Source of the DNA: Folioceros fuciformis
Lineage: Eukaryota
Direction: 5' to 3'
DNA length: 60,237 bases
Assembly: GCA_049999805.1 (NCBI GenBank)
Contig: JBNGIO010006336.1
Span: 86,110 to 146,346 of the forward strand
Position 1 is the stretch's first letter; each line of letters starts with the position of its first letter. Of the stretch, positions 4,875 to 55,437 are shown piece by piece. The notes beneath the pieces were generated by a model. That model was not told where the DNA came from. It made no database searches and saw only the letters and a list, made by a program, of their open reading frames with translations. Both the position numbers and the translations under genes were made by a program.

Positions 4875-7529
4875 CTAATAGTGATCTCCGCAAGAGCAGG
4901 CCCCATCTTTGAATCGGTGGACTCGGTGTGAATCTCTGATAGTGATTTCTCTCCTCTCGATTCTGGAGATGAACTTCGTTCCTCCATGGCAGTTATTGCA
5001 CATTCGGAGATCCTTGGTGATGAGCAGACCAGTACCTTCGGGTGTGTTGAGTATACCGAATGACAAGGCCAGCTTCTCAGCATGTCCACACAAAGCATCC
5101 TCCCTCCGCTGATCAGGCTTCAGCAACGAGTCCACTCTCGGGACAAACCCCTCCTCTTTCATCTGGAGACCCAGACTCCTGAGCTTTGTGTAAGCTGAAT
5201 CACTCATTTCGAAGCCTGTATCTCCAACAACAAACTCATGCACCTTGTTGTTTACTTCGATGGAGGCCCTTGCGGGTTTCTTCTGGGCACCTGCGTCCTT
5301 TCGTAGGTTCTCTATCTCTTCGACTTCCTCCCATCTGCTGGCCTCCACGTACATGTTGGTCATGAGAACATAAGCAGAAGCCTCCTGGGGATTCATCCTC
5401 ACAAGTCGGTCGAAGCATTGCCTTCCCAGTTCCACGTTGCCATGTGACTTGCACGCATTCAACAAAGACGTCCAACCGACACTGTCGGCCTTGAACGGCA
5501 TGGACTGCAGCAGAGATTCTGCGTCTTGTAAGCATCCTGATCGTCCAAGGAGATCAACCATGCAGTTGTAGTGCTCAACTGAGGGCCTGATGCCGTAGGC
5601 TTCTTGCATGAGCTTAAAGTACTGCTGACCCTCACTGACCAGGCCTACGTGGCTGCAGGCCACGAGCAGGCAGGTGAAGGTCGACGCATTGGGCTCAAAC
5701 CCCTGTTCGAGCATCTTGTCAAAACATTGCAGAGCCAGTTGACCTTGACTGTGCTGGCCATAGCCATTTACCAGCGTATTCCATGTTGCTGTATCCCTTG
5801 TTTGCAGACTGTCGAACGCTGTCTGAGCCTCTTCCAGTCTCCCACATTTCACATACATATCCACCAGGCTGTTTCCAACGATGACGTCTGTCAAAAGTCC
5901 CCTTTTCAGTACCTGAGCATGGATTTGTTTGCCTGCTTGGAGGGCCCCCTTGGTGCCACATGCTTGTAAAGCACTAACAAATGTGACATTATCGGGAAGC
6001 TTGCCATCCTTCTGCATCCTGTCATACAATTCAAGAGCCTCCTGGCCAAACCCCTGCTGGGCATAGCCCGTGATCATAGCAGTCCAGGTCACGACATTCT
6101 TGGAAGGCAAACTGTCAAACACTCCACGAGCTTCCTCCAAGCACTTGCATTTCACATACATGTTCATGAGAGCCGTTCCAACAAAAACGTCGGCCTCAAG
6201 TCCCCTCTCCCTAATCTGATCATGGATCTCCCTACCTTCCTCTACTCTGCCAATGCTGCCACATCCTGTCAGGATGCTGACAAATGTGACATTGTTTGGC
6301 ACTATGCCTGACTGCTGCATCTTGTCAAATAGTTCCAGCGCTTCTTCGCCAAGGCCACGCTGTGCATATCCTGCAATCATGGCATTCCAAGTCACCAGAT
6401 TCCTGGTCGACAAGGTGTCAAACACTCGGCGAGCATCCACCAGGCTCCCACATCTAGCGTACATGTCCACCAAGGTATTCCCAACAAACACATTGGACTC
6501 AAACCCACTCGCCAACACGTCTGCATGTACCAGCTTCCCCGACGTTAAATCCCCTGCTCCTCCACAAGCTTTCAGCACAGCCACAAAGATATAATCATTC
6601 GGTTTTATCCCCACCTCGTGCATCCGCTGGTAGATTTTCAGCGACTGGTCAGCTTGCCCATGCTCCCCGTTTGCAGAGATAATGGAAGCCCATGCAAACG
6701 TATCTGGTGCCGGCAACTTGCTGAAAACCTGGTTTGCTTCCACCAGACACCCATGAGAAGCATACATGCGAATGACCTGGTTCCCCAAGAAGGTGCTCTG
6801 CTCGAGCCCACTCAGCACCGTGAGAGCGTGCACACGTCTGCCAATCGCCAAATTCTTCTGTGCGATACACCCTCTCAACAGCAGATACAACATGTGCGGG
6901 GAGACGAACACTCCTTTTGCAGCAATATACTCCAGGGTCTGGAATGCCTCATCGAGCTCTCCCTCATCACACAACTTGCTCAGAAGGGCTTCAAACCCCT
7001 CAGTCGACTGAACAGCATTGCCCCCATTCGCCGCCAACAACCTGCAGATGATAAACCATTAAGAAGGGCAAGAACCTAAAGTCCAATCTGCTCTCATCAA
7101 GCTAGAACGAATATCCACACACCTGCTTTGTCCAAACCCAGTGTCCTCCTTTGGTGTTCCGTGCACAGACTCCAAAAAGCCCTTCACCTGAGATGACGAC
7201 GATCATCCACCATTAATCCTCATCCAAAACACATGATGTGCCAGAACTCCGTCTCTACCAAAGCCTTCTTTCTCACCTTGCTGGACCCATCAGGCAACCA
7301 ATTCGGAGGAGAAGCGGGCACCGGCCGTTCCCTCAATTTCCCCCCTGCTCATGCTCATGCAGAACCAGAACCCATGAGCAAAAATCCGAGAGGAAAACAA
7401 TAACCAGAGATACTCACTTCAATGACTGACTCCCTCACCTGGCGTACTGCCTGTTCCCAGGCTGGAAACTCCCCTGCACCATCCTCCTGCAAATATGAAC
7501 CTGGTGCCCTGGTGCCCAGTTCTCCTCAT
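4875..7529 (-). CDS. PLS-class PPR protein with E1/E2 and DYW:KP domain (candidate U-to-C editing factor), ends ...CSCGDHY. Main exon 4875-~7041 plus three small 5' exons; start at 7529 (alternative 7664)
   Basis: P-L-S repeats with 4 MY..CG-type S motifs, KKPARASIE box, HAEKLA, CNNCH. Upstream exons MRRTGHQGTRFIFAGGWCRGVSSL / GKLRERP..SK / VKGFLESV..QSR splice in phase and resemble an organellar targeting peptide. Confidence 0.9.
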
Positions 7530-17498: not shown

Positions 17499-17598
17499 NN
17501 NNNNNNNNNNNNNNNNNNNNNNNNNNNNNNNNNNNNNNNNNNNNNNNNNNNNNNNNNNNNNNNNNNNNNNNNNNNNNNNNNNNNNNNNNNNNNNNNNN
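17499..17598. other. Assembly gap (100 N)
   Basis: Run of exactly 100 N. Confidence 1.
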
Positions 17599-36300: not shown

Positions 36301-37489
36301 CCTTCAGAAGGCAAGCGAAAGTAACATGGTCAGATAAAATGAGGCCCTCCTGCTCCATTTGTCCGTACAGAAGAAGCGCCTCATGTCCAAGCCCTTGCTG
36401 TGCATACCCAGCAATCAGTGCATTCCATGTTACCACATTCTTTAATGCCATGCTGTCAAAGACCTGGCGTGCATCTTGCAGTTCACCACATTTCGCATAC
36501 ATGTCCACCAGGGAGGTGGCAACAAACACATCTGGAGGAATGCCACTGTGAAATACATCACAGTGCACATTCCTGCCAGATTCCAAGTCGGCGGCAAATG
36601 CGCACGCTTGAAGGGCAGCTACGAAGACGTGAGCATCCGCCTTCACTCCTGACCTGCGCATGTCATGGTACAGTTGCACGGCCTCCTTTGGTTTCCCATG
36701 CTTTGCGTATGCGGAGATTATGGAAGACCACATGAAGACATCTGGTCTCCCCACCTTGTTGAGCACATTCCTGGCTTCCTCTAGCCTACCTCCATTTGCA
36801 TACATGCGCAGGATATGATTTCCCAAGTATGCATTCGACTCGTACCCAAGTTTGACAATGAGATTATGAAGTCGTCGCCCCACAACCAGGTCCTTCTTAG
36901 CCGTACACAGTTTCAGCACAGTGTAAAGCAGAGACCGAGAAATGGCAGATTCTGTCTGTGCCAGAGATTCCAGGGCTCCAACTGCCTCAGAAAGCTTTCC
37001 CTGCTGACATAACAGGGTCACAGTTCCAGTCGTTACGAAGCCCATCTCCGATCCTGCGCGCCTGCCAGGTTCAGACTCGTTATCCAGGGACCTGGACTTG
37101 GAAGCAGAGGCACCATGACCCATCTGCATATCCACGGACACGAGCTGCTCATCAACCCAAGATGGTTTAAACACGTCATTTAACCACAGGACCTCGCCGG
37201 ACCCCTTACGCCGGAAGTCAGGCGAGCTGGAGCTCCTGGTGCCTCCTCTGTTGTCCCACCACATCGTAGGGTCCAGGAAAAATTGTTGCCACAAGTGCTC
37301 CTGCTCCTGGCGGCGACCATCGCTGGAAAGCGGAGGTTCTGGGCTCCTCACACTGCTGCACCTGGAGGCTTGGTTGCTTGCCAGGGCTTGAGCCCGTGAG
37401 CTGAGGGGAGAGGGAGCTCCTCGTAGAATCCCTGTAAACACACCAACGTGTTGGGTCCACAAAGAGTCCGGTTGCCATACTGTGGCCAT
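33380..37489 (-). CDS. PDF-motif + long PLS PPR array (9 S motifs, ~30 repeats) + E1/E2 + DYW:KP domain ending GRP; candidate U-to-C editing factor. True 5' end uncertain
   Basis: 1369-aa ORF with KKPAAATIE, HAEKLA, CSDCH and CSCKGRP*. N-terminal LWQQFFLDPTMWWDNR..SPDFRRKGSGEVLWL..KPSWV. Confidence 0.95.
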   Translation of the reverse strand: MATVWQPDSLWTQHVGVFTGILRGAPSPLSSRAQALASNQASRCSSVRSPEPPLSSDGRRQEQEHLWQQFFLDPTMWWDNRGGTRSSSSPDFRRKGSGEVLWLNDVFKPSWVDEQLVSVDMQMGHGASASKSRSLDNESEPGRRAGSEMGFVTTGTVTLLCQQGKLSEAVGALESLAQTESAISRSLLYTVLKLCTAKKDLVVGRRLHNLIVKLGYESNAYLGNHILRMYANGGRLEEARNVLNKVGRPDVFMWSSIISAYAKHGKPKEAVQLYHDMRRSGVKADAHVFVAALQACAFAADLESGRNVHCDVFHSGIPPDVFVATSLVDMYAKCGELQDARQVFDSMALKNVVTWNALIAGYAQQGLGHEALLLYGQMEQEGLILSDHVTFACLLKACASTGELQMGRQIHSQIVQRRLLDDILVGTSLVDMYAKCGELEEARQVFDSMATKNVVTWTALIAGYAQEGLGQEALVVYGQMEQEGLILADHVTFACLLKACASTSALLEGRQLHSQIVERGLLGNVVLGNCLVDMYAKCGELNDAHQVFEDMVTKDVVTWTVLISGYAQQGRSQEALVLYGQMEQEGLILADHVTFACLLQACASTGALQKGRELDTQIVEKGLLDDVVLGNCLMDMYIKCGELEDARRVFDCLATKDVVTWTALIAGYVQQGLGQEALVVYGQMEQEGLILADQVTFSCLLKACASTGALQKGRQLHSAIVGRGLLDDVVLGNCLIDMYANCGELEDARQVFDSMAKKDALTWNALISAYAEQGLGREALELYGQFEQEGLLVANDVTFICLLKACANSGAIQNGRQLHSQIVRMGLLDDVVLANCLVGMYAKCGELEDAHQVFDSLATKDVVTWTVLIAGYAQQGLGQEALAVYGQMEQEGLVLADHVTFACLLKACAITGALEKGRELHSQLVERGLLDNVLLGNCLVDMYGKCGELKDAHQVFEGLATKDVVTWNALIAGYVQQGQSQEALVLYGQMEQESLILADHVTFSCVLKACASSGALQKGRDLHSQIVERGLLDVALGTCLMDMYAKCGELDDTRRVFNSMATENVVTWNALISGYGTCDDGRKALACFDEMLAAGVQPDGVTFICLLAACSHGGLVHEGRKHFDSMTEEHGIKPTIEHHNCMIDLLGRAGHLDEAENMLLSCEEGQRNAVGLTSLLNACKSHGDLERAVWCFESLVALEPQQASAYVLMANAYADEGRWSDAGRIETQRTVAGAHKKPAAATIEVNKQVHRFLVGERREDIALKVESTNARLRQEGGHAPHTKLVLKPLCEKEKEDALCGHAEKLALAFGLLNTPSGTPLVVTKNLRMCSDCHSSTEIMSRLEHRDIVVRDGYRVHRFADGSCSCKGRP

Positions 37490-38198
37490 CGTTTAGAGAC
37501 CGTATGTCAGAACGTGAATCTAATAACGGACTACAGCTGGATGCCCAGGTGGTGCCTATGGCCACACCATCTTGAAGAACACATCTTGAAGGACGTCTGA
37601 CGGCCCTCAAGTACGTGCCCGGGAAAACGAGCACGCCACGGATTCGAAGTTTTGGACACCAACTGAACGATCAAACTAAATCGGTCCAAAAACCCTTGAT
37701 TCCAGAAGCGCAGGGATTCATGTGATCCTGATAACTGTCGAACACCAACCGAGGCACGTTGTGATGATAGAGCCATGCATTTAAGTCCTTGACTCAATCA
37801 CACCGTGGAGGAGCATTGGGTCTACCCTCAAGAAAAAAACCATGTCCATCAATGCCGAACGAGCTCGGTATTCCAGAATGCCTGATCGTCAGAAATTTTA
37901 GCTGGCACATCGCACTGATGGAGAAGCTTGAAGTTCTGCAAAGGTCTGATTCGAGTCTCATTCACAAGGAAATTCAGCGCAGACGACAGGACATCCGAAG
38001 CGCTGGACATGAATGCAACAGTCCAGCATCCAGGACACCAGGTGCCGCTTGCCCGCGGGCTGCTCATCAGCGATACGAACTCTGTCTGACCGGCTTCACA
38101 TGACTAGCCTATGGGAGCATTGCTTGCGTTTGCTTGAAGGCCGAAACACCGCCATATCCCAGTTGCCGCAAAAAATTGCGGGAACCCACAGGCCTCGT

Positions 38199-40750: not shown

Positions 40751-43700
40751 ATGAAGCAAGGAGCTTTGGTGAGTCTGATTAGAAGACGCAGTTTTGGCAG
40801 AAATTTTTCCTGGCTGCAGGAACGACGCAGATCAGGAGTCAGCGTCTGTGGTAAGTGGCCGTCTGCTTAGGGTTTCCATCTGTATCGAGCTGGGCATCCC
40901 TGTGCTCCAGTTGATTCCTTGAGGTGTTGCCCATTATGCAGTGGAATCAAGTGGAGAAGAGACTGTCTGGGGCAACTTTTTGGCAGACACATCACCCTTG
41001 AGGAACAGCAGATCGAACACGGTAACTCTGCCTGGAACCTGGCCCGGAGAAGGTCAGGAAGATCAGCTGAGTGAGGTTGTTGAAGCCTTGGATCAGCTGA
41101 TAGCTCAAGAATTCTATGTCCCAAACCGACTCCTCTACCGTGTTTTGGAAGGGTGCATTGCCAGGAATGACTTGGGTGGGGGAAGGAGGGTTCATGCTCT
41201 CACGTTGGAGACTGGACTGCATGGCCCAAGTACGTTCTTGGCCAACCATATCATCCGCATGTATGCTTCTCATGGTTTGTTGGAGGAAGCTGCACAGGTG
41301 TTTGCCTCACTGGCTACACCGAACACCTTCTCCTGGTATTATATTGTTTCGGCACACGCTCAACATGGACAGCCGAAGGAGGCCATACGCCTGTATCAGC
41401 AGATGCGGGGGTCATTGGTTAAGGCAGACAGCAGAGTGTTCGTGGCGGTTCTCAAGGCTTGTGGAAGCGCAGCGGACCTGGAATGTGGGAGGCAGGTGCA
41501 TGCCGATATCCTGGATAGTCTGCTTGAGCCTGACATGTTTCTTGGCTGCAGCCTAGTCGACATGTACGCAAAGTGCCAGAGCTTAGGGGATGCACGAAGC
41601 GTCTTTGACCAGTTGGGGTCAAGGGATGTAGTAACATGGACTGCCATGATCTCAGGATATGCTCATCATGGGTGTGGTCAAGAAGCGCTTTCCCTTTACA
41701 GAGATATGCAGCTGGAGGGTGTCTCTCCAGCTGATCGCGTCACGTTCATGTGTCTCTTGAAAGCGTGCTCCACCGTCGGAGCATTACATATGGGCAAGGA
41801 TCTTCACGTACAAATTCAGGAGAAAGGCTTGGAGAGTGATGTGGTTGTTGGCAACTGCTTGGTGGACATGTATGCCAAATGTGGCAGGTTAGAGGATGCG
41901 CGCAGTGTGTTTGACAAATTGGCCGCGAAGGATGCAGTGACATGGACTGCCATGATTAGTGGGTATCTTCAGCATGGGCTTGGTCAAGAAGCCCTTGCTC
42001 TGTATTCCTGCATGCCGACAGGGGACAAGAGTTTATTCGATCCTCACACCTTTGTGTGCCTTTTAAAAGCGTGCTCCAGGGTACGGGCGCTAGAAGAAGG
42101 TAAACAGCTTCATATCCAGATTCGGAGCAGAGGGCTGGATGCAGATGTTGTTGTTGGCTGCAGCCTGGTGGAGATGTATGGAAAATGTGGCAGCTTAGAG
42201 GATGCCAACAGAGTGTTCGATGCCTTGCTGCACAAAGATGTGGTGACGTGGAACACAATGATCGCGGCATTTGCTGAGCAGGGGCTTGGCCAAGAAGCCT
42301 TGACGATGTATGCGCGGATGAGAGAGGAGAGCAGCGCTGTAGCCAATGATGTGACATTCCTGTGTCTCTTGAAAGCCTGTGCCACCAGTGGGATCCTGCA
42401 CCAGGGGAAGCATCTTCACTTCCACATCAAAAACAGTGGACTGGAGGCTGATGTGGTTGTGGGGAGCAGTTTAGTGGATATGTATGTAAAATGCGGGAGT
42501 GTAGAGGATGCTCGGAAAGTGTTTGACAGCTTGCCTACAAAAAATGTGGTGACATGGACTGCCATGATTTCAGGGTACGTGGATAATGGGCTTTGCCAGG
42601 AAGCCCTCTCTCTTTACGAAAGAATGGAGGAGCAAGGCGTCTTTCCCGCTGATCATGTAACATTTGTGTGCCTCGTGAAGGCATGTGCCAGTGTTGGAGC
42701 GTTACATCAAGGGAAGCAACTATATTCTCAGATTCAGGAAAGGGGGTTGGAAACTAATGTGGTCGTAGCCCAGAGCGTGGTGGATATGTTTGCAAGATGC
42801 AGCGGTCTAGAGGATGCACGCAGAGTGTTTGACAGTTTGCCTGTCAGAGAAGTGGAGACATGGACTGCGATGATTGCTGGGTATGCCCAGCATGGGATGG
42901 GTCAGGAAGCTCTTTCACTTCATGCTAGGATGAAACGGGAGTGCCTAGATACAGCCAGTCATGCAACATATGTGTGCCTCCTGAAAGCCTGTGCCAGTAT
43001 TGGATCCTTAGACAAGGGCAAGGAGCTGCACTGTGAGATTCGGGAAAGAGGACTTGATGCTGATGTGACTGTGAGCAATTCTCTGGTAGACATGTATGGC
43101 AAATGTGGGAGCGTGGAAGATGCTCGCCGGGTTTTCGATCAGTTGTCATCCAAAGATACGGTGACATGGAATGCCATGATTGCAGGATATGCCCAACATG
43201 GGCTTGGTCAGGAAGCTCTCAGTCTCTATGAATGCATGCAAGCGGAGGGCTTCACTCCTGCGAATGAAGTGACATACATTTCCCTCCTGAAAGCTTGTGC
43301 AAGCGTCGGAGCGTTCCATCAAGGAAAGGGTCTTCATTTGCTCATCCAGAACAGAGGCTTGGACACGGATGTTGTTCTTGGCAGTGTCCTTGTTGACATG
43401 TACGCCAAATGCAGCAGCTTAGAGGAGGCTCGGAGAGTCTTCGACGAGTTACCCACGAGGAACGTGGTGACATGGAATTCTCTGCTGAATGCATGCGGAC
43501 AGCACAACGACGGCCGAAGGGCAGTTCAGTGTTTCCAGGAGATGCAGCGGCACGGAATCGAGCCTGACAGCTCCACTTTTCTCTGTCTGCTGGTGGCCTG
43601 CAGCCACTCTGGACTGGTCCATGAAGCTAAGACGTATTTCAAGATGATGGTGGATGATCATGGAATCACTCCCAGTGTTCACCATTTCAACTGCATGGTC

Positions 43701-44378
43701 GATGTTCTTGGGCGGTCAGGACAACTGGACGAGGCTGAGCAACTGCTGCGAAGCACGCCATCCAAGCATGATTTGGTGGGCTGGATATCTTTGCTGACTG
43801 CTTGCCGGAGCCATAGTGACGTCGAACGTGGATGGCGATGCTTCGACCAAATCATGCAGCTAGACCCCAAGAACGCAGCGGCTTACGTCCTGTTATCAAA
43901 CATTTTGGCCAATGCCGGAAGGTGGAGCGAAGTAGAGCGCATAGAGACCCTGAGAAGATCCGCAGGCGCGAGCAAGAAGCCCGCAAAGGCTTGGATCGAG
44001 GTGAACGACAAGGTCCACAATTTCACTGTGGGAGAAGACAGGGGAGACGTCTCCTCCAAGCTAAGGAGCGTGAATCTCCGTCTGGAGACGGAAGGCGGCC
44101 ATGTGCCCCACACGGAGTTGGTGCTCAAACCATTGTCGGAGAAAGAGAAGGAAGACGCCCTGTGTGGGCATGCCGAGAAGCTAGCACTGGCCTTCGGTCT
44201 GCTCAACACCCCAGACGGCACAACGTTGCTGGTGACCAAGAATCTCCGTATGTGCGATGATTGCCATAGCGGCACAAAAATCATGTCCAAGCTGGAGAAG
44301 CGAGCGATCATAGTTAGAGATGCTCACCGTGTTCATCACTTCGTGAATGGGCTTTGCTCGTGTGGGGATCATCTGTAA
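40751..44378 (+). CDS. PLS PPR (8 S motifs) + E1/E2 + DYW:KP ending GDHL. Exons 40751-40850 and 40942-44378
   Basis: Exon 1 MKQGALVSLIRRRSFGRNFSW... is targeting-peptide-like and joins by a phase-1 GTAAGT..CAG intron. KKPAKAWIE, HAEKLA and CDDCH are present. Confidence 0.93.
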
Positions 44379-44454: not shown

Positions 44455-47400
44455 ATGAAGAAGGGTCATCCTGTAGTGTCAAGCCTGCTACAAGGCAGAG
44501 TCCGTGCTCTGAGCAGCACCGCCTTGGAGGGTGGCTGTCGACAAGCTTCCACTCTGCAGGCGGCAGCTGATCAGCGTCCATCTCTTGGTGAGGCCAGTTC
44601 GTCTTTGCTGCCTGTTGGTCCAATTGTGAGTCTGAGCCATATTGCTGGGGGATTTGCATGTGAGATCCGTTTAGCTGGCTTGCAGCGGAGGCGAGAGGAT
44701 GGAGCGCCGATAAGTTGCAGTGGTCGGGAAGCTGGACATGCCCCGACTTCATGCACGGAGCAAGGGAGGCTTTATGCGTGGAATCTTCGGGTCTGAGTGA
44801 ACGGCCGCCAGGGAGGTTGTACCAACCTGGAGTCAAGTTCTGGAGGTCCAGCCACTTTACTGCTTTGGGTTTTTTGATGCATCTGTGACAGTCTTCAGCT
44901 CTGGGGTCTGATGGTCTGGTAAATTTGACCTTGCAGGTTTAGAATTGCCGAAGACGGTTTGGGGAATGGAAGCTCCAGAGAGCTCAGTCAGGCTGTTAAG
45001 GAGTTGGACCTCCTTGTGCGCCATCGATCTGATGTTTCTGACTCAGTTTTCTACCGTGTCCTCAAGGGATGCATTTTGGAGAAGGATGTGGTGGCTGGCA
45101 GGCGTGTTCATTTTCTGGCCCTTAAAGCTGGGCATCAGAAGAATGCATTCTTGGCCAGCCACATAATTCGGATGTATGCTTCTCGCGGGAGGTTGGAGGA
45201 AGCGATGGAGGTGTTTACCGCGTTTGCTGAGCCCGACAAGTTTATGTGGGCTTCCATCATTCTGGCACATGCTGAACATGGTCAGCCCATGCAGGCGATA
45301 GAGCTTTATCGATGCCTGAATCAATCGACGTTGAAGGCCAATGATCCCGTTTACGTTGCAGTCCTGAAAGCGTGTGGCAGTGCAACTGATTTAGCTGCAG
45401 CCAAGCAGGTGCATGCCCATGTTTTGTGCAGTGGTGGTCAGCCGAGAATGTTTGTTGGGAGCTGCCTGGTGGACACGTATGTGAAATGTGGAAGCTTGGA
45501 GGATGCCCGCAGGGTGTTTGATAGCTTGCCTGCAAAGGACGTAGTGACATGGACAGCCATGATTGCAGGATACGCACAGCATGGCCTCGGACACGAAGCC
45601 CTGATGTTGTATGCAAGTATGCAACAGCAGGGCATGACCCTAGCCAATCAAGTTACTTTTGTTTGCCTCCTCAAAGCGTGTGCTTCTGTCGGAGCCTTGC
45701 ATCACGGTAGGCAGCTGCATCTCCAGCTTCAGGAAAGAGGCTTGGCCTCTGGTTTGGCGGTTGGCAGCAGCCTTGTGGACATGTATGCAAAATGTGACAG
45801 CCTGGAGGCAGCTCGCAGTGTCTTTGATGGTTTACACCTTAGAGACGTGGTGATATGGAATTCCATGCTTTCAGGATATGCTCAGCAAGGGCACGGTCAA
45901 GCAGCGCTGCAACTCTATGCAAGCATGCAGCAGGAGGGCGTTATCTCGCCCAATGAGGTCACATTTGTATGCCTTCTTAGAGCCTGTGCTGGCATTGGAG
46001 CTTTGCACGAGGGTGAGAAGTTGCACCTTGAGATTCGGGAGAGGGGATTGGAAACGGATTTGGTGGTTGGCAGCAGTCTGGTGGACATGTACATGAAATG
46101 TGGGAGCGTGGACAAAGCGCAACAATTGTTTGACCGAATGCCTGCACGAGATGTAGTGACGTGGACTGCAATGATCATAGGATATGCTCAGCATGGACTG
46201 GGACAAGAAGCTCTGGCTCTTTATACGAGCATGCTAAACCAGGGCATCCGCCCTGTGGACCCTGTTACGTTCGCATGCCTACTGAAAGTATGTGCAGGTG
46301 TCGGGGACTCTAGCCTAGGACTGCAGCTCCATGAACAGATTCGAAATGAAGGGCTGGAAGCGGATTTGCTTGTTGGCAGCAGCCTTGTGGACATGTATGT
46401 GAAATGTGGAAGCTTGGCAGATGCCCGGAAGGTCTTCGACAGAATCCCGACAAAAGATGTTGCAACCTGGAATGCAATGCTGGCGGGCTATGCCGAGGCT
46501 GACTTTCACCAGGACGCCCTTAACCTTTACGCCAATATGCAACAGGAGGGGGTCACCTTACCTGATTCTCGGACATTCGTGTACCTCCTTAAAGCATGTG
46601 CCAGCAGTGGTGCTTTAGATGACGGCAAGGAGCTACATTCCGAGTTACAAGAGAAACGAATGGAGGCAGATGCAGTTTTGGGAAGCAGCCTTGTCGACAT
46701 GTATGTAAAATGTGGCAATTTAGACGAAGCTCGGAGAGTGTTTGACCGACTCCCCTCAAGGGACGTGGTGGCATGGACTTCCATGATCGCAGGGTATGCC
46801 CAAAACGGAGATGCTCGGCAAGCCCTTGCTTTGTTTCAGAGTATGGAAGAAGTCTTTCCAGCTGACCAGGCGACCTTTGTGAGCCTTTTGAAGGCATGTG
46901 CTAACGCTGGAACGTTGCACCTTGGGAAGCACCTTCATTCCCATACTCAGAGAAGAGGGCTGGAACCTGATGTGGTTGTTGGCACCTGTGTGGTGGACAT
47001 GTATGCCAGACTTGGCGACTTGGAGGCTGCTCGCAGAGTGTTTGACAGATTACCAACTCGAAATGTAGTGACATGGAATGCCATGCTAGCAGGGTATGCT
47101 CAGCATGGTCTTGGTCAAGACGCCATCGCTCTGTACAGTGAAATGAAACAGCAAGCTGCCATACCGGCTGATAAAATTACGTTTCTGTCTCTTTTGAAGG
47201 CATGTGCTAGTGTGGGCGCGTTACATCAGGGTCAGCAGCTTCACGAAGAAATCCGGGAACGAGGATTGGAAGGTGATGCTATCATCAGCAGCGCCCTTAT
47301 TGACATGTACGCAAAATGTGGGCGCGTAGAGGATGCCCGAAGTGTGTTTGAGCGAGTGCCAACAGGAGATGTCGTAACCTGGAATGCTATGATGAACGGG

Positions 47401-48264
47401 TTTGCCCACCATCAGGATGGCAAAATGGCAATTTGCATTTTCAAGGAGATGCAGGAGCAAGGTGTTGAGCCTGACGATGCCACTTTTCTCTGTCTCCTAG
47501 TGGCATGCAGTCATGCAGGGCTCGTGCGCGACGGACAGGAGTACTTCAAAATGATGGTGGAGAACTACGGGATCAAACCAACTGCTTACCACTTCAACTG
47601 TATGGTGGACATATTTGGCCGGTCAGGGCACTTAGAGCAGGCAGAAAACTTGCTACGAAGTACGGACTGCGAGGATGATGCGGTTGGGTGGACCTCTTTG
47701 CTCAGTGCATGTAGAAGCCACGGAGACATCTCGCGCGGGATCCGATGTTTTGACCGCTTAGTCCAATTGGAACCTCAAAATGCAGCTGCTTACGCCCTTA
47801 CGTCCTCCATGTATGCCAGTGTCGGCCAGTGGAAGGACGCAGAAAGGATAGAGAACCTGCGACAGATAGCAGGTGCTTGCAAGAAACCTGCAAGGGCCTG
47901 GATAGAGATAGACAGCAAGGTGCACGACTTCCTTGTAGGGGACGAGAGAGATGACATCACGTCCAAGCTAAGGAGTGCAAATTTGCTAATCGCAGAACAC
48001 GGGGCTGATGGGCACCATACCGAGCCAGTCATGAAGCCTGATGCTCTGTGTGGACATGCTGAGAAACTGGCACTTGCCTATGGTCTGTTGAGCACTCCGG
48101 ATGGCACACCTTTGGTAGTCACGAAAAACCTTCGGATGTGCAACGACTGCCACAGCGGAACCAAGATTCTGTCGAGGGTGGAAAGGCGAGAGATCATAGT
48201 TAGAGATGCACATCGTGTTCATCACTTCGTGGACGGGTGTTGTTCCTGCGGGGATCGGCACTGA
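44455..48264 (+). CDS. PLS PPR (8 S motifs) + E1/E2 + DYW:KP ending GDRH. Inferred exons 44455-44587, 44686-44845, 44937-48264
   Basis: KKPARAWIE, HAEKLA, CNDCH, CSCGDRH*. Upstream exons MKKGHPVVSSLLQGRVRALSS... splice in phase (phase 1, then phase 2); the second donor, GTCCAG, is weak. Confidence 0.9.
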
Positions 48265-48607
48265 TTGTTTTCAGAGATTTGTGTCTGTGCACCGCACAAC
48301 TCAATCATCGGATTGGCTAGGGCTGGCCGGTGCTGCAATTGTGGCAAGCAACACCTCTTCCCACGCTTCATGATCCGGAGTTTCCAGAATTCGAAACTTT
48401 TGCATTCCTGCAAAGGGATTCTCAAACCTCATGTATCACACCTTAGCTCCACTCCACAAGAAAGGAGTTGGAGACGACTTGGAGAAACTCCTGAATTGAA
48501 AGGGGCCTTAACGTGAAATTGTATCGTCTTGTGGATGAAAGCAAATTCGGTCACACATTGTGTGAGGCAAGGAGAACTGGATTGAGCACAAGGACGAGGA
48601 GAAGGAG

Positions 48608-48707
48608 NNNNNNNNNNNNNNNNNNNNNNNNNNNNNNNNNNNNNNNNNNNNNNNNNNNNNNNNNNNNNNNNNNNNNNNNNNNNNNNNNNNNNNNNNNNNN
48701 NNNNNNN
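48608..48707. other. Assembly gap (100 N) within an AG-rich tract
   Basis: Run of exactly 100 N flanked by GAGAAG-type repeats. Confidence 1.
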
Positions 48708-48716
48708 AAGGAGAAG

Positions 48717-50332
48717 ATGAGCGCCGGGCCCTTGCCTAGAGAGATTGCAGAAGTTGTCTGCTCTGGTGGTGTTGATGGTGATGTGTCCGCAATGGACTTG
48801 GAAGTGTCGGGCGACCTCCAAACGGATGCAAGAGTTATTACAGCCAAGCTAGTGAGTGCAGAAGAGGAGGACGTTGTGCGGCTAAATCCGACTCCTTCGG
48901 CAGGTCGCAGGTCTATGGGTGGCCATGAAATGGCGGAGGACACAAACCCTGATGCACCGAAGCAGTTCGTGGAGTGGCTCATCTCTCCTATGGCACTGGA
49001 CGTATTTCTGCGCGATTACTTTGAGCGTGAACCGTTTGTGATACACCGTTCTAACAAGAGGGATTTCTTTAAGGGATGGTTTGGCAAGCAGGATGTGGAG
49101 GAGCTAATTGTGAGCGACAAAAACCTCGAGTACGGGCTGCATGTTGACGTGACAAGATATCAGGATGGGGCAAGGGTGAATCTCGATGCCGAAGGTGTTG
49201 TGGATCCGGCTGTGGTTTGGGACCAGTTCTCCAAGGGCTGGTCCGTCAGGGTGCTTCATCCTGAGAGGTGGAATGATTCCATGTTTTTGGTGCTCTCTGC
49301 CTTTGAGAGATTCTGGAATTGCGTGGCTGGTTGCAATGCTTACCTAACGCCTGCTGGAGCTCAGGGTTTTAGCCCGCACTATGATGATATCGATGCCTTC
49401 ATCATCCAGACAGAGGGGAGGAAGAGGTGGAAGTTATACAGGCCTCTGAGTGAGGAGGAGGAGCTTCCCAGGTTTCCCAGCGGGGACTTCAAAGAGGAGG
49501 AACTCGGGCCAGTTTTGCTGGATGATGTGTTAGAGCCAGGAGACTTGTTGTGAGTACAAACGTTGTCTTACAGTTCTTCGACAGTGCTGAGTGGAAAGTT
49601 GTTGCAGTACTGACTCATGTTTCTTTGATCAGGTATATGCCACGAGGAATTATCCACCAAGCTGTAGCAGCCCCAGATACCAGCCATTCATTGCATGTAA
49701 CGGTGTCCGTCAACCAGCTCAACACTTGGGCAGACTATCTCCAAGGACTTTGGCCTGCAGCTTTAGAGTTGGCTTCCACGGACTTCTTAGCTTTGAGGAA
49801 ATCCCTTCCCAGAGACTTCCTGCATGTGATGGGAGTGGCAGAAAGCGATAAGAAGTCTGCCCAAAGAACTTATTACTTGAGGCAGGCGTCTCAGTTCATG
49901 ACGAATGTCGCGAACTCAGCACCCTGGGATGCCTATGCAGATCAGATAGCGCTGAAATTTATGAGGTCTCGATTGCCTTTGCCCCCTTCCTTCCAACAGA
50001 CCAAGACACCGTCAGGGGAGACAAGCCTTCTGACTTGTACATCACAGGTGCGAATGGTAGCACCACTCGTGGCAAGGCTGTCTGTGGAGGACGAACGAGC
50101 GATCTTATGCCATGCATTGAGCAATAGGAGGGAGGTACACAATGAACATGAAGATGGTCAAGAGCTTTCCGTCCTTGATTATCCCATTGAATACACTGAA
50201 GCACTGGAGCAGCTACTTGGGTCGTCTAACTCCCCGATCTCAGTGGCATCCCTATCCCTTGATTCCAAGAAGCAGTCCGTGGACCTGGTAAAGGAGTTAC
50301 ATGAGGTTGGACTTCTCGTGATTGTCGATTAA
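48717..50332 (+). CDS. JmjC/cupin ribosomal oxygenase of the NO66/MINA (RIOX1/2) type; intron 49550-49632; the true start may lie in or before the gap
   Basis: FVEWLISPM..D.F.RDYFER.P, GCNAYLTPAGAQGFSPHYDDIDAFIIQTEGRKRW (HxD), LEPGDLL|YMPRGIIHQA (distal His), HSLHVTVS...NTWAD, LRKSLPRDF. Confidence 0.88.
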
Positions 50333-50654
50333 AAATCCTCCTCCCCTGTGTCGTTTGTCGCAAATCTGATAGAGAGCGTACTAGGTGCATAGTCTGATCC
50401 CTTGTTCGAACAATGAGGCAGATGTAATTTTTATGACATAACGAGGTGCGATAACACACGGTGGAGTCTCTTGTCTTAGCGTGCTTCATCCGACTTGAAC
50501 TTCGATTCACACCAATGCATTCCTCCCTTTTCCTGGAGATAGCATCGGACAATTCTATTGGACGAGATACTGCACGTGAGCAGAAGATGTTCACAGACGC
50601 GTACTCCTACGAATCTCCACCCGCTGGACCTCCTTCTCCAAACTATCCTGGGGT

Positions 50655-53600
50655 GTGTCAGGAGCAAAGCAGATGGTTGTCGTTCTAATTAAGGCCGGTG
50701 AGTGGTATCCTGTTCCTGCTCATAGCACGTCATTCAGACAGAGGTCTACTCCCCCTCTTGTCGCAAGCACGTGTGCAGATCCGACGAAGGAAAATGCTTC
50801 GGATAGCAAGAGTCCTACCAAAGACTCAGCGGGTCGGCACCAGGAGCTCTTGTGGCGACAGTTTTTCCTGGACCATACACTCTGGTGGGATAACAGACGA
50901 CGCAAGAAGAATGCTCGATATTCGCCTGACTTCAGGCATAAGGAGTCCCTAGAGGTACTCTGGCTGAACGACAAGAACAAGCCAGCTTGGGTTGATGGGC
51001 AGCTTGCTGCTCTCGATATGCGGATGGGTCGTGGAGGACACGATACGGGAGTTACGGCTGAAACCGTGACCCTACTATGTGAGGAGGGCCAGCTCGCTGA
51101 GGCTGTCGAAGCCTTGGGCATTCTGGTGCATACAGACTTTCGTGTCTCTCAGTCTCTATTTTTTACTGTCCTGAAAAAATGTGTGGCTCAGAGGAATCTG
51201 GTCCTGGGTCGCCGAGTTCATGCTCTCACTGTGCAAGGGGAGTGCGAGTCGGACACGTTCTTGTGCAACCACATAATGCAAATGTATGCTTCTTATGGCA
51301 GGTTGCAAGACGCCATGGATGTGTTTACAGTGGTTGCTAAACCAAATGCATTTACCTGGTCTGCCATAATTTCTGCGCACGTGAAACAGGGACAAGATAA
51401 GCAGGCCATGCTCTTGTATCACCAGATGCGCAGCTCAAGCATGAAGCCAGATGGCTATGTGTTTGTAGCAGCGCTTCAGGCTTGTGCAAGGGGGCAAGAT
51501 CTGCAATCTGGGCAGCAGGTCCATGCTGATGTGCTCGCCAGTGGGGTTGAGCCTGATTTGTTTGTCTGTAACTCTCTCGTGGACATGTATGCAAAGTGTG
51601 GATGCTGGGATGAGGCTCGAAGAGTGTTTGATGGACTTGATCGAAAAGATGTGGTGACATGGAATGCCATGATTGCAGGGTACTCCCAGCAGGGGATGGG
51701 GCAGGAAGCCCTGGATCTCCACAAGGCTATGAAAGATGAAGGCGTCGTTGCGCCTGATTCTGTGACATTCGTATGCCTCCTGCAAGCATGTGCAAGTGTG
51801 GGCCCTCCAGCTTTGGAGAAAGGGAAGCAGCTTCATGCACAAATCAGAAGACGAGGTCTCCAGATTGATGTGTTTGTGTCAAACAGTTTGGTGAACATGT
51901 ATGTGAAGTGTGGCAGCTTGGATGAAGCTCAATCAATGTTTGATGGACTTGTTCACAGGGACGTGGTCACATGGAATGCGCTGATTGCAGGATATTCCCA
52001 GCAGGGCAGAGCGCAGCAAGCTCTTGGCCTTTACACAATCATGCAAGAAAAGGGAAACATATCACCAGATGCTGTGACATTTAGGTGCCTCTTGCAGGCA
52101 TGTGCAGCTTTGGGTAACTCAAGTTTGGAGAAGGGAAAGGAACTTCACAGGGATCTTACAGATCGAGGGTTTCTGGCTGACATGTTCGTTGGCAACAGTT
52201 TGGTAGACATGTATGCAAAGTGTGGCAGCCTAGAGGATGCTCAAAGGGTCTTTGACGGACTGTGTCAAAAAAATGTGGTGACGTGGAGTGCCATGATAGC
52301 TGGGTACTCCCAGCAAGGCATGGGTGAGGAAGCTCTTGCTCTTTACAAGGCTATGCAACGGGAAGACATCAGTGCTCCTGATTCTGTGACGTTTGTGTGC
52401 CTCTTGCAGGCATGTGCAAGCACCCAGGCTTTGGAGAGGGGGAGGGAGCTTCATGCCCGGATTAGAGAAGAAAACCTTGAAGCTGACATGTTTGTAGCCA
52501 GCAGTTTGATAAGCATGTATGCGAAATGCGGCAGCCTGGAGGACGCTCGGGGTGTGTTTGACAAACTTGGCCAAAGGAACGTGGTGACATGGAGTGCGAT
52601 TATAGCAGCATATTCACAGCAGGACATGGGGCAGGAAGCCCTCGGCCTTTACACGGATATGCAAGAAGAAGGACTTGTCACACCCAATTCTGTGACCTTC
52701 GTAAGCCTTCTGCAAGCATGTGCACGTGTAGGCACGCCGACTTTGGATAAGGGAAAGCAGCTTCATGCACAAATTAGAGAACAAGGGCTTGAGGCTAATG
52801 CGTGTATAGCCAACAGTTTGGTATACATGTATGCCAAGTGTGGCAGCTTGGAAGATGCTCAAAGTGTGTTTGATGGACTTGATACAAAGGATGTGGTGAC
52901 TTGGAATGCCATGATTGCAGGATATTCTCACCAGGGCATGGGCCAGGAAGCCCTTCATCTGTACAAGGCTATGCAATCAGACGGCATGGCTGTGCCCGAT
53001 TCTCTAACATTTGTATGCCTCCTGCAGGCTTGTGCACGCGTGGCTGCTTTGCATGTGGGAAAGCAACTTCATGCTCAGATACAAGACATGGGCCTTGGAG
53101 CCAACGCGACTCTAGGCAACAGTCTGATAAACATGTATGCAAAATCTGGGAGTATGGTTAACGCTCAGCAGATATTCGATGCTTTGCCCGAGAGAAATGT
53201 TGTCACCTGGAGTTCACTGATTGCAGGATACACCCGCCAAGGCGACAGTGATAAAGTTTTCGACCTGCTTCTTAAAATGCGAGAGGACGGAGCACAGCCA
53301 GAAGGCATCACCTTCCTTAGTGTGTTGACAGTATGCAGTCATACGGGTCTAGTGACCAAAGGCCGAGAGTACTTCGAAGCCATGAGCACGCAATTCCTCA
53401 TCACTCCCGCGGTGGAGCACTACGCATGTATGGTGGATCTCCTGGGTCGTGCAGGCCAACTGCACGAGGCACTATCACTGGTAACAACAATGCCTGTGCC
53501 ACCTAACGCATCGGTTTGGCACACTCTGTTGGGTGCTTGCCGAAAATGGGGCAATGTGCAGGTAGGACGCCGTGCCTTCGATGAAGCCGTGCAGCTAGAC

Positions 53601-53879
53601 GAGAAGGATGCTGCAGCGTATGTGCTCATGATAAGCATCTACAGAGGTGCCCAGATGTGGGATCAGGCTCGCCGAATGCAGGCCAGGAGAATAGGGATGA
53701 GGGCATGGAAGCAGCCAGGACAGACCTGGTGGACAGATATGGACGGGCTGGTGCATGAGTTTCTGGTCGGGGACAAGAAGCATCATGACAGTGAAGCTAT
53801 ATACGCAACACTGCTACAGCTCCAATCCAAAATCACGAACGAAGGTTATCTGTCACTCGTTTCTTCGTCCCCGGGTTAG
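50655..53879 (+). CDS. PDF-motif + PLS PPR (7 S motifs) + E1/E2 + WW-type PG box with truncated DYW (no deaminase motif). Probable in-frame intron 50698-50778; 5' end uncertain
   Basis: WKQPGQTWWTDMDGLVHEFLVGD...EGYL then stop, with no HxE or CxxC downstream. N-terminal LWRQFFLDHTLWWDNR..SPDFRHKESLEVLWL..KPAWV. Confidence 0.92.
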   Translation: MSGAKQMVVVLIKAGEWYPVPAHSTSFRQRSTPPLVASTCADPTKENASDSKSPTKDSAGRHQELLWRQFFLDHTLWWDNRRRKKNARYSPDFRHKESLEVLWLNDKNKPAWVDGQLAALDMRMGRGGHDTGVTAETVTLLCEEGQLAEAVEALGILVHTDFRVSQSLFFTVLKKCVAQRNLVLGRRVHALTVQGECESDTFLCNHIMQMYASYGRLQDAMDVFTVVAKPNAFTWSAIISAHVKQGQDKQAMLLYHQMRSSSMKPDGYVFVAALQACARGQDLQSGQQVHADVLASGVEPDLFVCNSLVDMYAKCGCWDEARRVFDGLDRKDVVTWNAMIAGYSQQGMGQEALDLHKAMKDEGVVAPDSVTFVCLLQACASVGPPALEKGKQLHAQIRRRGLQIDVFVSNSLVNMYVKCGSLDEAQSMFDGLVHRDVVTWNALIAGYSQQGRAQQALGLYTIMQEKGNISPDAVTFRCLLQACAALGNSSLEKGKELHRDLTDRGFLADMFVGNSLVDMYAKCGSLEDAQRVFDGLCQKNVVTWSAMIAGYSQQGMGEEALALYKAMQREDISAPDSVTFVCLLQACASTQALERGRELHARIREENLEADMFVASSLISMYAKCGSLEDARGVFDKLGQRNVVTWSAIIAAYSQQDMGQEALGLYTDMQEEGLVTPNSVTFVSLLQACARVGTPTLDKGKQLHAQIREQGLEANACIANSLVYMYAKCGSLEDAQSVFDGLDTKDVVTWNAMIAGYSHQGMGQEALHLYKAMQSDGMAVPDSLTFVCLLQACARVAALHVGKQLHAQIQDMGLGANATLGNSLINMYAKSGSMVNAQQIFDALPERNVVTWSSLIAGYTRQGDSDKVFDLLLKMREDGAQPEGITFLSVLTVCSHTGLVTKGREYFEAMSTQFLITPAVEHYACMVDLLGRAGQLHEALSLVTTMPVPPNASVWHTLLGACRKWGNVQVGRRAFDEAVQLDEKDAAAYVLMISIYRGAQMWDQARRMQARRIGMRAWKQPGQTWWTDMDGLVHEFLVGDKKHHDSEAIYATLLQLQSKITNEGYLSLVSSSPG

Positions 53880-54016
53880 AGCCTCACCTGGGTTCATGGC
53901 TCTGGTTCCATACCAACACGAATGCAGGTACGTAGATAAGAAGAAGGCACACAGCGCAAACACGCAGGCCGCCTGCACTGGCCTAACACGGAAGAAGTGG
54001 AGGAATTCAATTGTAT

Positions 54017-55437
54017 CTATGGATGGGACTCCAAACGCTCGAGCTGAAAGTGCAAGCCGTTTTTGTTGAGCCTTTCTTGCAGGTCGGTGGTGGCAAAAGC
54101 AGCTCCAGGCGTGAAGACCCCCCCCTTTGGCAAGGCCTTTCTTTGATCAAGCACCAGAAGCGCAGCCTGAACCAGGCAAATGGGAGTGGTGACGTAGCCC
54201 ATTTCAGGCCCCGTTATGCGAGTGACGATCACCTTGTCCGGCAGTCGTGAGTCGCCTTGTGCAACCGCGCTGCTGTATCCTTTTCCCACAAACCACATGG
54301 AGAAACTCATGTTGTTGATGGCCTCCTCGGTCGGCCCTTCCTTGGAGAAAATCCCCAGCGAGCACAGCCTGGGGTGGTGCAGCAGCCATCTCTTGCCCCA
54401 GCGGAACTGCACCAACCTTGCCCACACGGACGCCATCAACAAGATGCACAGCAGAGGTACGCAGTTCCTGGACGTCAGGTAGCACCCGTAGTGCGCAGGC
54501 CTGAGAGACCGCCATTCCTGTTTCCTGCTCTCGCAGTCGGCATGGGAGTCCAGCCCGTCGGGATTGGTGGCCCACGTCGACTGCGTTCTGCGGACAACGG
54601 TGGCGTCAGCCACGGGGAGCTTTAGCGCCCACTTCCCGATCTTCTCCTCCCACTGCAGCAGCCCAGGCTTCCTGGCCGGGATCCCGGCAATCTGCAGCAG
54701 CCAGCGTTTCTCATTGTTCAGCCTGGGCATTAGAGGAAACGCAGAAGATGGAGAGAGCAGGATGCATGTGGCAGTACCTGAGGGCGAGTTCTGTGAGGGA
54801 CGCTGCGTCTGATTTCCGCCAGCACCTGGGCATTGGAGAGCGAGAGAATGAGGGACTCGTAAGTGCCGAAGTTGATGATAGCTCCCCGGTGCCGGTTCTT
54901 GGATGCGCCCATGACGTAAGAATCAACGCTGTTGGGAGTCCAGCCTCGCTTCAGGAATTCCTTGGTTGTGTACTGCACTCCGATCTCGGCCGGGATGGAG
55001 TCGTATCCGCAGGCCGAAACGATGAGGCACTGGTTGTGCACCGCCGTCTTGTGGTACTTCATCTCCATGCTCTCCATGAAAGCTGGCTCTCCGCAGATGT
55101 CCAGGTAATCCACCCCGGCTTGCACGCATGCTGCCACCACGGGCTCCCCATACGTGCTGTAAGGCCCCACGCAGGAGACGAGCAGCTTGGTGTGCTTGCA
55201 CAGTGAAGCCAGGGAGTCGGGCTGGAACACGTCTGCCTCGAGGATTGGGATTCTAGTGAGGAGGGAGGGATCCGGACCTCCCGCCCAGATGAGTGTGGCA
55301 GCCAGCTTGTTTTGGTCCCGTCCGGCGATGCCGATTTTCTTGTTGAACTTGAGGAACTCACGAAGCACGTACTTCCCAGTGAAACCTGAAGCTCCAAGTA
55401 TGATGATATCCAGCAGCAGTCCCTGCTCTGCGGCCAT
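54017..55437 (-). CDS. Saccharopine dehydrogenase-like oxidoreductase (SCCPDH family); intron 54692-54777
   Basis: DIIILGASGFTGKYV, IAGRD..KL, CVGPY..YGEPVV.AC...G.DYLDICGEP, SACGYDSIPAEIG, GPEMGYVTTPICLVQAAL, LPKGGVFTPGAAF. Confidence 0.93.

Follow-up and report, generated by a model that had tools for sequence, protein, structure and literature searches.

The usual picture of a PPR editing factor is that of a targeting tract followed by a C-terminal E/DYW module, and surveys of their architecture lean on Pfam. A stretch of 60,237 nt from Folioceros fuciformis contig JBNGIO010006336.1 (hereafter the window) raises the question of how a PDF motif of the kind carried by OSB proteins came to stand ahead of such a tract, and what it might do there. 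The gene in question, gene B, is an open reading frame (ORF) at 50673-53879 on the forward strand. Positions 50844-51005 (+) translate to exactly the 54 residues quoted in a preliminary description of this DNA, lie inside a stop-free ORF and make up residues 58-111 of the gene B protein. The best overall explanation of our data, to which we assign a probability of about 80%, is that gene B is an intact, transcribed PLS-PPR gene with an OSB-type PDF domain, drawn from an old and widespread family of non-seed plants.

The ORF runs without a stop from the ATG at 50673 to the stop codon at 53877-53879 and is laid out as follows (pLDDT, predicted local distance difference test; HMM, profile hidden Markov model; gene A, a PDF-bearing paralogue in the same window).

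50673..53879, + strand: gene B, an intact ORF of 1068 codons (stop included) encoding a PLS-class PPR protein of the E+ or truncated-PG type with an N-terminal PDF domain
50673..50843, + strand: the N-terminal 57 residues ahead of the motif, poorly conserved and predicted to be disordered (pLDDT 46-63)
50844..51005, + strand: PDF motif, residues 58-111 (HMM match 50835-51017)
51006..51056, + strand: variable spacer, residues 112-128, differing in length by 19-20 residues from that of gene A; pLDDT dips to 67-82
51057..53552, + strand: PPR array with Pfam PPR matches; the first motif is 'TVTLLCEEGQLAEAVEAL', the "linker" of the preliminary description, and predicted helices begin at residue 129
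53553..53729, + strand: E motif, residues 961-1019 (Pfam PF20431, E 1.3e-7)
53706..53732, + strand: PG box WKQPGQTWW, residues 1012-1020, read from the translation; the protein ends 48 residues further on

Pfam recognizes tandem PPR repeats along gene B (PPR_2, E 1.5e-117, 10 stretches; PPR, E 3.5e-103, 13 stretches), as is characteristic of PLS-class PPR proteins, to whose E+ subgroup we assign it. Class names are used here as in print (DYW:PG and DYW:KP).

The motif itself was identified in two ways. A six-frame regular-expression scan of the window found two PDF motifs, that of gene B and one at ~37222 (-), and an HMM of 282 PDF instances, run on the six-frame translation at E<=10, returned four matches, two of them significant: 50835-51017 (+), with an independent E-value (i-E) of 6.5e-21 and 62.7 bits, and 37130-37312 (-), with an i-E of 1.3e-22 and 68.2 bits. 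The occurrence of the motif in the window is far beyond chance. The reverse-strand match belongs to gene A:

33380-37492, - strand: gene A, a PDF-PPR paralogue with a complete KP-type DYW domain (DYW_deaminase E 2.5e-33; 'KKPAAA' and 'HAEK' in the translation), ending in CSCKGRP
37142..37300, - strand: PDF motif of gene A (HMM match 37130-37312)

Pfam holds no model for the PDF motif, and the first 159 residues of gene B match no Pfam family at E<=1. A profile made from the motifs of genes A and B and searched against 1.84 billion representative proteins matched 658 of them at E<=1e-3, of which 205 reached E<=1e-10 and 20 reached E<=1e-30. Word-indexed searches with the motif region, by comparison, scored none of 9 candidates of near length and none of 340 shorter ones, which reflects the index and not a lack of homologues. 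Pfam families were assigned for the best 150 of these 658 matches: 32 had an SSB domain (PF00436) with the PDF match C-terminal to it and often repeated, which is the OSB architecture; nine had PPR families; one had a kinesin domain and one belonged to other families; and 107 had no Pfam family at the thresholds used. Among the named matches were P0009 ('protein OSB3, chloroplastic/mitochondrial-like', Chenopodium quinoa, E 3.4e-46), P0090 ('OSB1, mitochondrial-like', Drosera capensis, E 5.1e-14) and an osb1 protein of Phtheirospermum, while one of the SSB-PDF proteins came from the green alga Pyramimonas. The proposed homology to OSB proteins thus held: the gene B motif is, by these matches, a true homologue of the OSB PDF motif, with the same length (~50 residues), the same pattern (W..FF..WWDNR..K.N..PDF.HK...LW...P.WV) and highly significant similarity. 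The two reviews on which we draw describe a 50-residue, green-plant-specific element that suffices for binding single-stranded DNA (ssDNA) in AtOSB1 (PMC6963530, PMC4166229). The single kinesin match, P0055 (Coptis chinensis KAF9616283.1, 1526 aa), combines an OSB-like N-terminal part bearing PDF motifs with a kinesin motor domain, and probably reflects two gene models merged in annotation, not a genuine fusion.

Conservation within the motif is concentrated in a small set of columns. Alignments of 31 and 38 sequences show W61, F65, D73, R75 and F87 to be invariant and W71, W72, K78, P85, D86, K90, L96, W97, P104, W106 and V107 to be nearly so; gene B keeps all 16 (5 invariant plus 11 near-invariant), including P85-D86-F87, while gene A lacks K78. 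The suggestion that gene B lies even closer to the OSB consensus than gene A is therefore right for these columns, though not for the HMM score, which is higher for gene A (68.2 vs 62.7 bits). Across 38 sequences, copies attached to OSB and to PPR proteins do not differ at the invariant columns (W, F, D, R and F). Counted from the sequence, the 54 residues include 9 aromatic and 11 basic ones, and a basic loop, NRRRKKNARY, joins the two predicted strands of the domain; this composition and loop look compatible with single-strand binding.

An AlphaFold2 model of the first 209 residues of gene B, built with a 31-row alignment, places the motif in a compact unit. Residues 1-45 look disordered (pLDDT ~50), residues 51-110 have pLDDT 92-97 and form a predicted helix (50-66), two strands (71-73 and 87-89) and a second helix (106-121), and PPR-like helical hairpins follow from residue 129. 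Modelled alone, the PDF domain reached a pLDDT of 91.3 and a predicted template modelling (pTM) score of 0.78, so that the motif is confidently predicted to fold into a helix-strand-strand-helix mini-domain. In Foldseek, the best matches of the 209-residue model were designer PLS-type PPR proteins (5iwb and 5izw), and these were weak (E 0.015-0.036). With the PDF-only model, Foldseek against the Protein Data Bank (PDB) gave four rows, all at E>6, and VIA-align, run on 48,161 chains, peaked at Z 4.0, with no chain reaching Z>=5; phmmer with the PDF domain against PDB sequences gave no match at E<=1. No solved relative of the PDF domain turned up in these PDB searches, from which novelty of the fold does not follow. 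The nearest ESM Atlas clusters for 50817-51038 (+) were of phage gp49 (PF25690), with scores of 0.79-0.83, below the 0.9 threshold for a lead, and the window motifs had no Phage_gp49 match in Pfam at E<=10 and no PHROG match at E<=1. One PDF-bearing protein from the profile search, P0074, has a weak PHROG row to a Gp2.5-like ssDNA-binding protein (E 0.09).

Although it shares this motif with OSB proteins, gene B is not itself one, because it has no SSB/OB domain: PF00436 gave no match at E<=1, whether the full-length protein or only residues 1-159 were scanned. OSB proteins have an SSB-like OB-fold domain N-terminal to their PDF motif or motifs, whereas the PDF of gene B is itself N-terminal and is followed by a PPR array of ~900 residues; moreover, PPR-linked PDFs cluster apart from OSB-linked ones. 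Gene B would share with OSB proteins a presumed organellar localisation. Its 57 residues ahead of the motif, of which 13/57 (23%) are identical to gene A, with synonymous sites saturated, are possibly an organelle-targeting presequence.

At the other end of the protein, gene B resembles E+ proteins: it has a PLS array, an E motif, a short PG-box stretch, truncation soon after and no deaminase domain, and only the Eplus_motif model itself fell under the cut-off (E 0.1). DYW:PG (C-to-U) enzymes have a DYW deaminase domain with HxE and CxxC zinc-binding motifs, all of which are absent from gene B, and DYW:KP proteins make up the U-to-C editing class of hornworts, lycophytes and ferns. Gene B is not of the latter class either, since its box reads WKQPG rather than KKPA.A and a tree of C-terminal regions places it outside the KP clade. 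The contrast drawn in the preliminary description between the two C-termini was confirmed, with a PG box and truncation after 'NEGY' in gene B and CSCKGRP at the end of gene A. Its label "C-to-U class" stands in part: the PG-type E/E+ tail is the sole basis for it, and gene B has no deaminase. In a Pfam scan, DYW_deaminase was absent from gene B and present in 4/4 neighbouring PPR genes, and the 3 kb downstream, searched in every frame by tblastn with the tails of those genes as queries, held no DYW remnant. Since there is no such remnant, and since a convergent gene (54017-55437, -) has its near end ~140 bp past the stop codon, the truncation is not a recent frameshift. A contig from the RNA reads introduced below, 53727-54694, spans the 3' ends of gene B and of this convergent gene, and the two transcripts may overlap. 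Lacking a deaminase, gene B can act only as a specificity factor dependent on a trans-acting deaminase, or else as a non-editing RNA binder. The E+ subgroup is enriched in hornworts, according to the main text of a 2026 kingdom-wide survey of editing-factor domain fusions (PMC13386178); an N-terminal nucleic-acid-binding domain of the kind proposed for gene B was not reported for E+ proteins in the literature searched.

Substitution rates between genes A and B (Nei-Gojobori) support purifying selection on the motif. Within it, 35/53 residues are identical and the ratio of nonsynonymous to synonymous rates (dN/dS) is 0.22 (dN 0.20, dS 0.90), compared with 53% identity and a dN/dS of 0.40 in the first PPR block, 33% identity in the E region and 23% in the 57 residues ahead of the motif. 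The PDF motif is thus the best-conserved segment between the two genes, in agreement with the selection proposed at the outset, and neutral evolution was not seen.

Gene B is also transcribed, as the preliminary description had required. A contig of sequencing run X3 skips a GT..AG intron at 49550-49632, in the gene upstream, whereas DNA run X1 is continuous there; because of this we take X3 to be RNA. Runs X3 and X4 are assigned to RNA solely from such intron skipping, and X3 comes from the same organism as the DNA runs. Exactly matching X3 contigs cover 50676-50878 and 50906-51105 (most of the motif, at a depth of 3-4), 52994-53456 and 53727-54694; 50488-50675 and 50879-50905 are left uncovered, though gaps between contigs prove nothing. 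A spliced contig from a relative (X4) spans 49633-51274 with 161 differing letters and 30 gap letters (~90% identity), and one from a further relative (X10) shows 32 differences across 50845-51310; relatives therefore keep the region. The raised summed depth of the DNA run over the PDF bin (50.8 vs ~7) was considered as a measure of copy number and rejected, as it cannot serve as one.

Several observations weigh against reading gene B as a conserved, expressed member of a family. The synonymous rate of the A/B motif comparison is near saturation (0.90) and just 53 codons were compared. RNA contigs are shallow, with a depth of 3-4 over the motif, and cannot show the 5' end, so that the ATG at 50673 is a predicted start; the next in-frame ATG lies downstream of the motif. 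Finally, protein databases gave no close orthologue of gene B, the best of 3374 matches having 52% identity.

The motif is nevertheless far from unique to this locus. Of the nine PPR proteins among the best 150 of the 658 profile matches, two are from Adiantum capillus-veneris (one with two PDFs), others are from Pteridium aquilinum, Ceratopteris richardii and Selaginella moellendorffii, and that of Sphagnum compactum has a complete canonical DYW domain ending in CSCRDYW. Among the three remaining, one has three PDFs and another, P0063, is KP-type and is the closest of the nine to the window genes (65% identity in the motif). Several short PDF matches are, by eye, N-terminal fragments that continue into PPR sequence. 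A second approach, an HMM scan for PDF motifs (i-E<1e-5) in the best 120 of the 3374 whole-protein homologues of gene B, found 29 proteins with one to three N-terminal PDFs. Tallied by hand from source names, these comprised 20/29 rows from Diphasiastrum complanatum, 2/2 from the liverwort Calypogeia fissa, 2/2 from Sphagnum, 1/18 from Adiantum, 0/5 from Ceratopteris and 4/46 from other sources, with 0/18 from seed plants (Cryptomeria, 12; 'Gb_', 5; Mikania, 1). In the lycophyte D. complanatum, P0206, P0243, P0278 and others have up to three tandem PDFs ahead of the PPR array, and the PDF domain appears to have been duplicated within the PPR context.

A pattern-based classification of C-termini in 36 PDF-PPR proteins gave 10 with a complete PG-DYW, 2 with a KP-DYW and 24 without a deaminase motif, the last being truncated or cut gene models. 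Together with KP-type gene A, these counts uphold the claim that the same N-terminal cassette spans both editing classes, and since the PDF occurs on PG, KP and truncated members, the module is independent of editing direction. Constraint on it is not uniform: residues 77-141 of P0063 have a degraded core (CWD for WWD, RDF for PDF) in a protein that keeps a complete KP-type DYW domain. Public sequences of this architecture are annotated merely as hypothetical or PPR proteins. The two surveys, each restricted to the best matches, strongly support the view, already put forward for genes A and B, that PDF-PPR proteins are a family rather than a one-off, and one that is widespread in mosses, liverworts, lycophytes and ferns.

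Within the window, gene B is one of five intronless PLS PPR genes, four with a KP-type DYW domain and gene B alone with a PG-type E+ tail. The other three are:

4875..7058, - strand: gene C, a KP-type PPR-DYW paralogue without a PDF
40923..44378, + strand: gene D, a KP-type PPR-DYW paralogue without a PDF
44929..48264, + strand: gene E, a KP-type PPR-DYW paralogue without a PDF

DYW_deaminase matches genes A, C, D and E at E 2e-29 to 5e-37, and their translations show the KP signatures KKPA.A and HAEK; gene A is the only one of these four with a PDF motif. At ~45-55% identity, the five genes are old paralogues and not recent tandem copies, and their mix of KP-type and E+ members suggests a hornwort-like source. 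Two candidate PDF relics were found, each in another frame than the gene that follows. The first, 'TQFWQKFFL' at 40788-40813 (+) upstream of gene D, is weak (26 nt that match gene A at 84.6% identity, with E 0.002 for a database of 3 kb), and the second, 'CPDFMHGAREALCV' at 44736-44786 (+) upstream of gene E, is not significant alone (i-E 2.9). If these relics were real, genes D and E would have lost the PDF domain; we treat them as leads only.

These paralogues also clarify the "linker" that gene B was said to share with gene A. The N-termini of the two proteins are indeed similar (183 aa align at 49% identity, interrupted past the motif by a 19-residue gap), but the part from 'LC..G.L.EAV.AL' onward also occurs, at 43-50% identity, in the three PDF-less window paralogues. 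The presence of the same sequence in PDF-less genes, together with the modelled helices, indicates that most of the "linker" is the first PPR-like motif, common to all five genes; the real PDF-to-PPR spacer appears to be ~18 residues long and variable in length.

Elsewhere around gene B, the upstream gene (48495-50332, +) has two exons separated by an 83-nt GT..AG intron (49550-49632) that is spliced out in RNA contigs of three organisms; its product is, by eye, a candidate cupin/JmjC-type protein only. The assembly has gaps, runs of 100 N, at 17499-17598 and 48608-48707.

How did the motif reach this gene? The preliminary description offered two histories, in which the fusion predates the divergence of the editing classes or N-termini were exchanged by recombination, and each now finds part of its case in the data. 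In a tree of 34 PPR-linked and 50 OSB-linked PDF motifs (63 columns), the PPR and OSB labels change three times, compared with a mean of 26.7 for shuffled labels (0/500 shuffles as low). A tree with the PPR-linked PDFs held as one clade was 8.8 log-likelihood units (lnL) better than the free search, had a p-value of 0.71 in the approximately unbiased test (p-AU) and was the best found. The fusion is thus probably old, and a single origin agrees with the best tree, though so short an alignment amounts to no proof. Lineage-specific groups are visible among the PPR-linked motifs, including a Diphasiastrum clade (97/93, starred). Gene B pairs with KP-type P0063 (96/78) and then gene A (91/77), and all three fall in a starred nine-row clade with P0276 (KP-type), P0004, Selaginella and fern proteins.

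Separate trees for the two ends of the protein, which the preliminary description had proposed, were discordant for gene B, with moderate support. In the N-terminal tree (454 columns of the PPR array after the PDF, 29 rows), gene B is nested in the KP clade (7 rows, 97/97, starred; 10 rows, 100/99, starred), and the KP set that holds it has as its sister P0262, which is PG-type and lacks a PDF. In the C-terminal tree (186 columns, from the last PPR through E1 and E2 to the box; 26 rows, 2/28 having been dropped for want of an anchor), ten KP rows form a clade (98/95, starred) without gene B, which lies on the PG side (93/91); forcing gene B with the KP rows costs 8.7 lnL (p-AU 0.040). Pairwise comparison within the window gave a similar picture, in that no two genes are more alike in the first PPR block than A and B (54%) and gene B is the outlier in the C-terminal block (36-41%, vs 52-62% among KP genes). 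In a sliding window, mean identity shifts from KP-favouring to PG-favouring near residues 896-965, and the E1 region has PG-type signatures (MPVPPN...W..LLGAC). Gene B thus groups with DYW:KP proteins, four of which are its neighbours, by its PDF and N-terminal array, but differs from them in its PG box, its lack of a deaminase and its C-terminal placement. We lean, by a little, towards gene B being a mosaic in which a KP-lineage PDF and PPR array were joined to a PG-type tail.

This leaning is checked by three of its own results: the sliding-window differences in identity are slight, the C-terminal branch of gene B is long (0.96), so that its placement may be an artefact, and an N-terminal tree with a nine-row KP clade lacking gene B, though 17.9 lnL worse, is not rejected by the test (p-AU 0.0755), for a group that was named after the tree had been inspected. 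The last two points lend substance to a history without any mosaic, in which gene B is the vertical descendant of a PG-type sister lineage of the KP clade, much like P0262, and a tail evolving fast after loss of the deaminase misplaces it. Gene B and P0262 share the 'WK.PG' form of the box, and both trees place P0262 as the sister of the KP clade; what such a history leaves to be explained is the nesting of gene B among KP rows in the free N-terminal tree, the p-AU of 0.040 for joining it to them at the C-terminus, and the E1 signatures with their accompanying shift in identity. We regard vertical descent as a serious contender that falls somewhat short of even odds. A different form of exchange, a recent swap of N-termini between genes A and B, was rejected, as the distances between family members are all about the same, with 47-49% identity across hundreds of residues.

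P0262 and P0198 are 'WK.PG' box proteins with KP-like features further on (GGHVPH, EDALCGHCEKLA; ends CSCDDYV). P0262 may be an intermediate between the two editing classes.

The architecture of gene B has a precedent in principle, since RRM-PPR and similar fusions likewise place an accessory nucleic-acid-binding domain on a PPR tract (PMC13386178). The survey that describes them covers RRM, MORF and RanBP2-zinc-finger fusions, and 'single-stranded' and 'OSB' each occur 0 times in its article text, supplementary tables being outside that count (PMC13386178). Since the PDF motif is without a Pfam model, domain-based surveys would miss PDF-PPR fusions. Full-text literature searches, with subscription-only papers and supplementary files outside their range, found no report linking the PDF motif or OSB to PPR or DYW proteins. 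The PDF-PPR architecture is thus apparently undescribed, as a combination of a known motif with a known repeat protein.

A PPR tract lies on its RNA with the N-terminus facing the 5' end, and the PDF module would therefore sit just 5' of the PPR footprint. We propose that it could act there as an accessory, sequence-independent binder of single-stranded nucleic acid, adding affinity or holding the target single-stranded for the long array; gene B as a whole would either direct a trans-acting deaminase to its target or serve as a non-editing RNA binder. This accessory role, suggested by what two reviews say of the OSB motif (PMC6963530, PMC4166229) and by the composition of the motif in gene B, seems to us about evenly poised between right and wrong.

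The main alternative is that the PDF keeps an OSB-like preference for ssDNA and tethers the PPR protein to the nucleoid, or to transcription or replication bubbles, where it would meet nascent transcripts without contacting the RNA target through this domain. The literature on OSB proteins counts here against an RNA-side role and fits such a tether better: AtOSB1 and AtOSB2 are said to prefer ssDNA to dsDNA or RNA (PMC4166229), with the AtOSB1 motif sufficing for ssDNA binding (PMC6963530, PMC4166229). The identity of the conserved columns in OSB-linked and PPR-linked copies points the same way. However, the separation of PPR-linked from OSB-linked PDFs on the motif tree (3 label changes vs 26.7) would allow a shift in specificity, and the spacing of only ~18 residues between the PDF and the first PPR motif favours contact with the same strand, so that a DNA tether seems unlikely, if well worth keeping in view.

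That the PDF instead mediates oligomerisation or recruits partners, such as a deaminase acting in trans, and does not bind nucleic acid at all, we consider highly unlikely. A partner would be needed by gene B, which has no deaminase, and AtOSB2 is reported to be a tetramer, though the same review attributes ssDNA binding and not oligomerisation to the motif (PMC6963530). Furthermore, the PDF is equally present on proteins with a complete DYW (10 PG and 2 KP of 36, plus gene A) and is not specific to truncated factors. Least credible of all is that gene B is a decaying, non-functional remnant whose motif persists only through a young duplication: the missing deaminase, the low depth of RNA contigs (3-9) and the possible relics beside neighbouring paralogues could be read in that way, but the ORF has 1068 codons without an internal stop, the paralogues are old (dS ~0.9 or saturated) and yet retain a motif dN/dS of 0.22 and 16/16 conserved columns, a relative's RNA contig covers the region at ~90% identity, and E+ proteins are described as a regular and abundant class in hornworts in the text of the fusion survey (PMC13386178).

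An N-terminal predicted single-strand-binding domain has apparently gone unremarked despite its presence on a large share of PLS PPRs in several non-seed lineages (20/29 rows in Diphasiastrum). The finding joins two fields, organellar DNA maintenance, through OSB proteins, and RNA editing, and it suggests a cis-acting accessory binding step in heavily editing species. A broader reading, which we offer as conjecture and think distinctly unlikely to hold in full, is that the PDF was an ancestral, built-in single-strand clamp of land-plant organellar editing factors of both classes, kept in liverworts, mosses, hornwort-like sources, lycophytes and ferns and missing from the seed plants in our sample, where trans-acting helpers may have replaced it. 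MORF/RIP proteins, which are not known outside seed plants, are one candidate for such helpers. The finding also bears on the design of synthetic C-to-U and U-to-C editors: if the clamp reading is true, PPR editors, both natural and synthetic, could change in affinity or efficiency on addition of a PDF. If the mosaic structure of gene B is confirmed, it would document an actual instance of the two editing classes exchanging modules.

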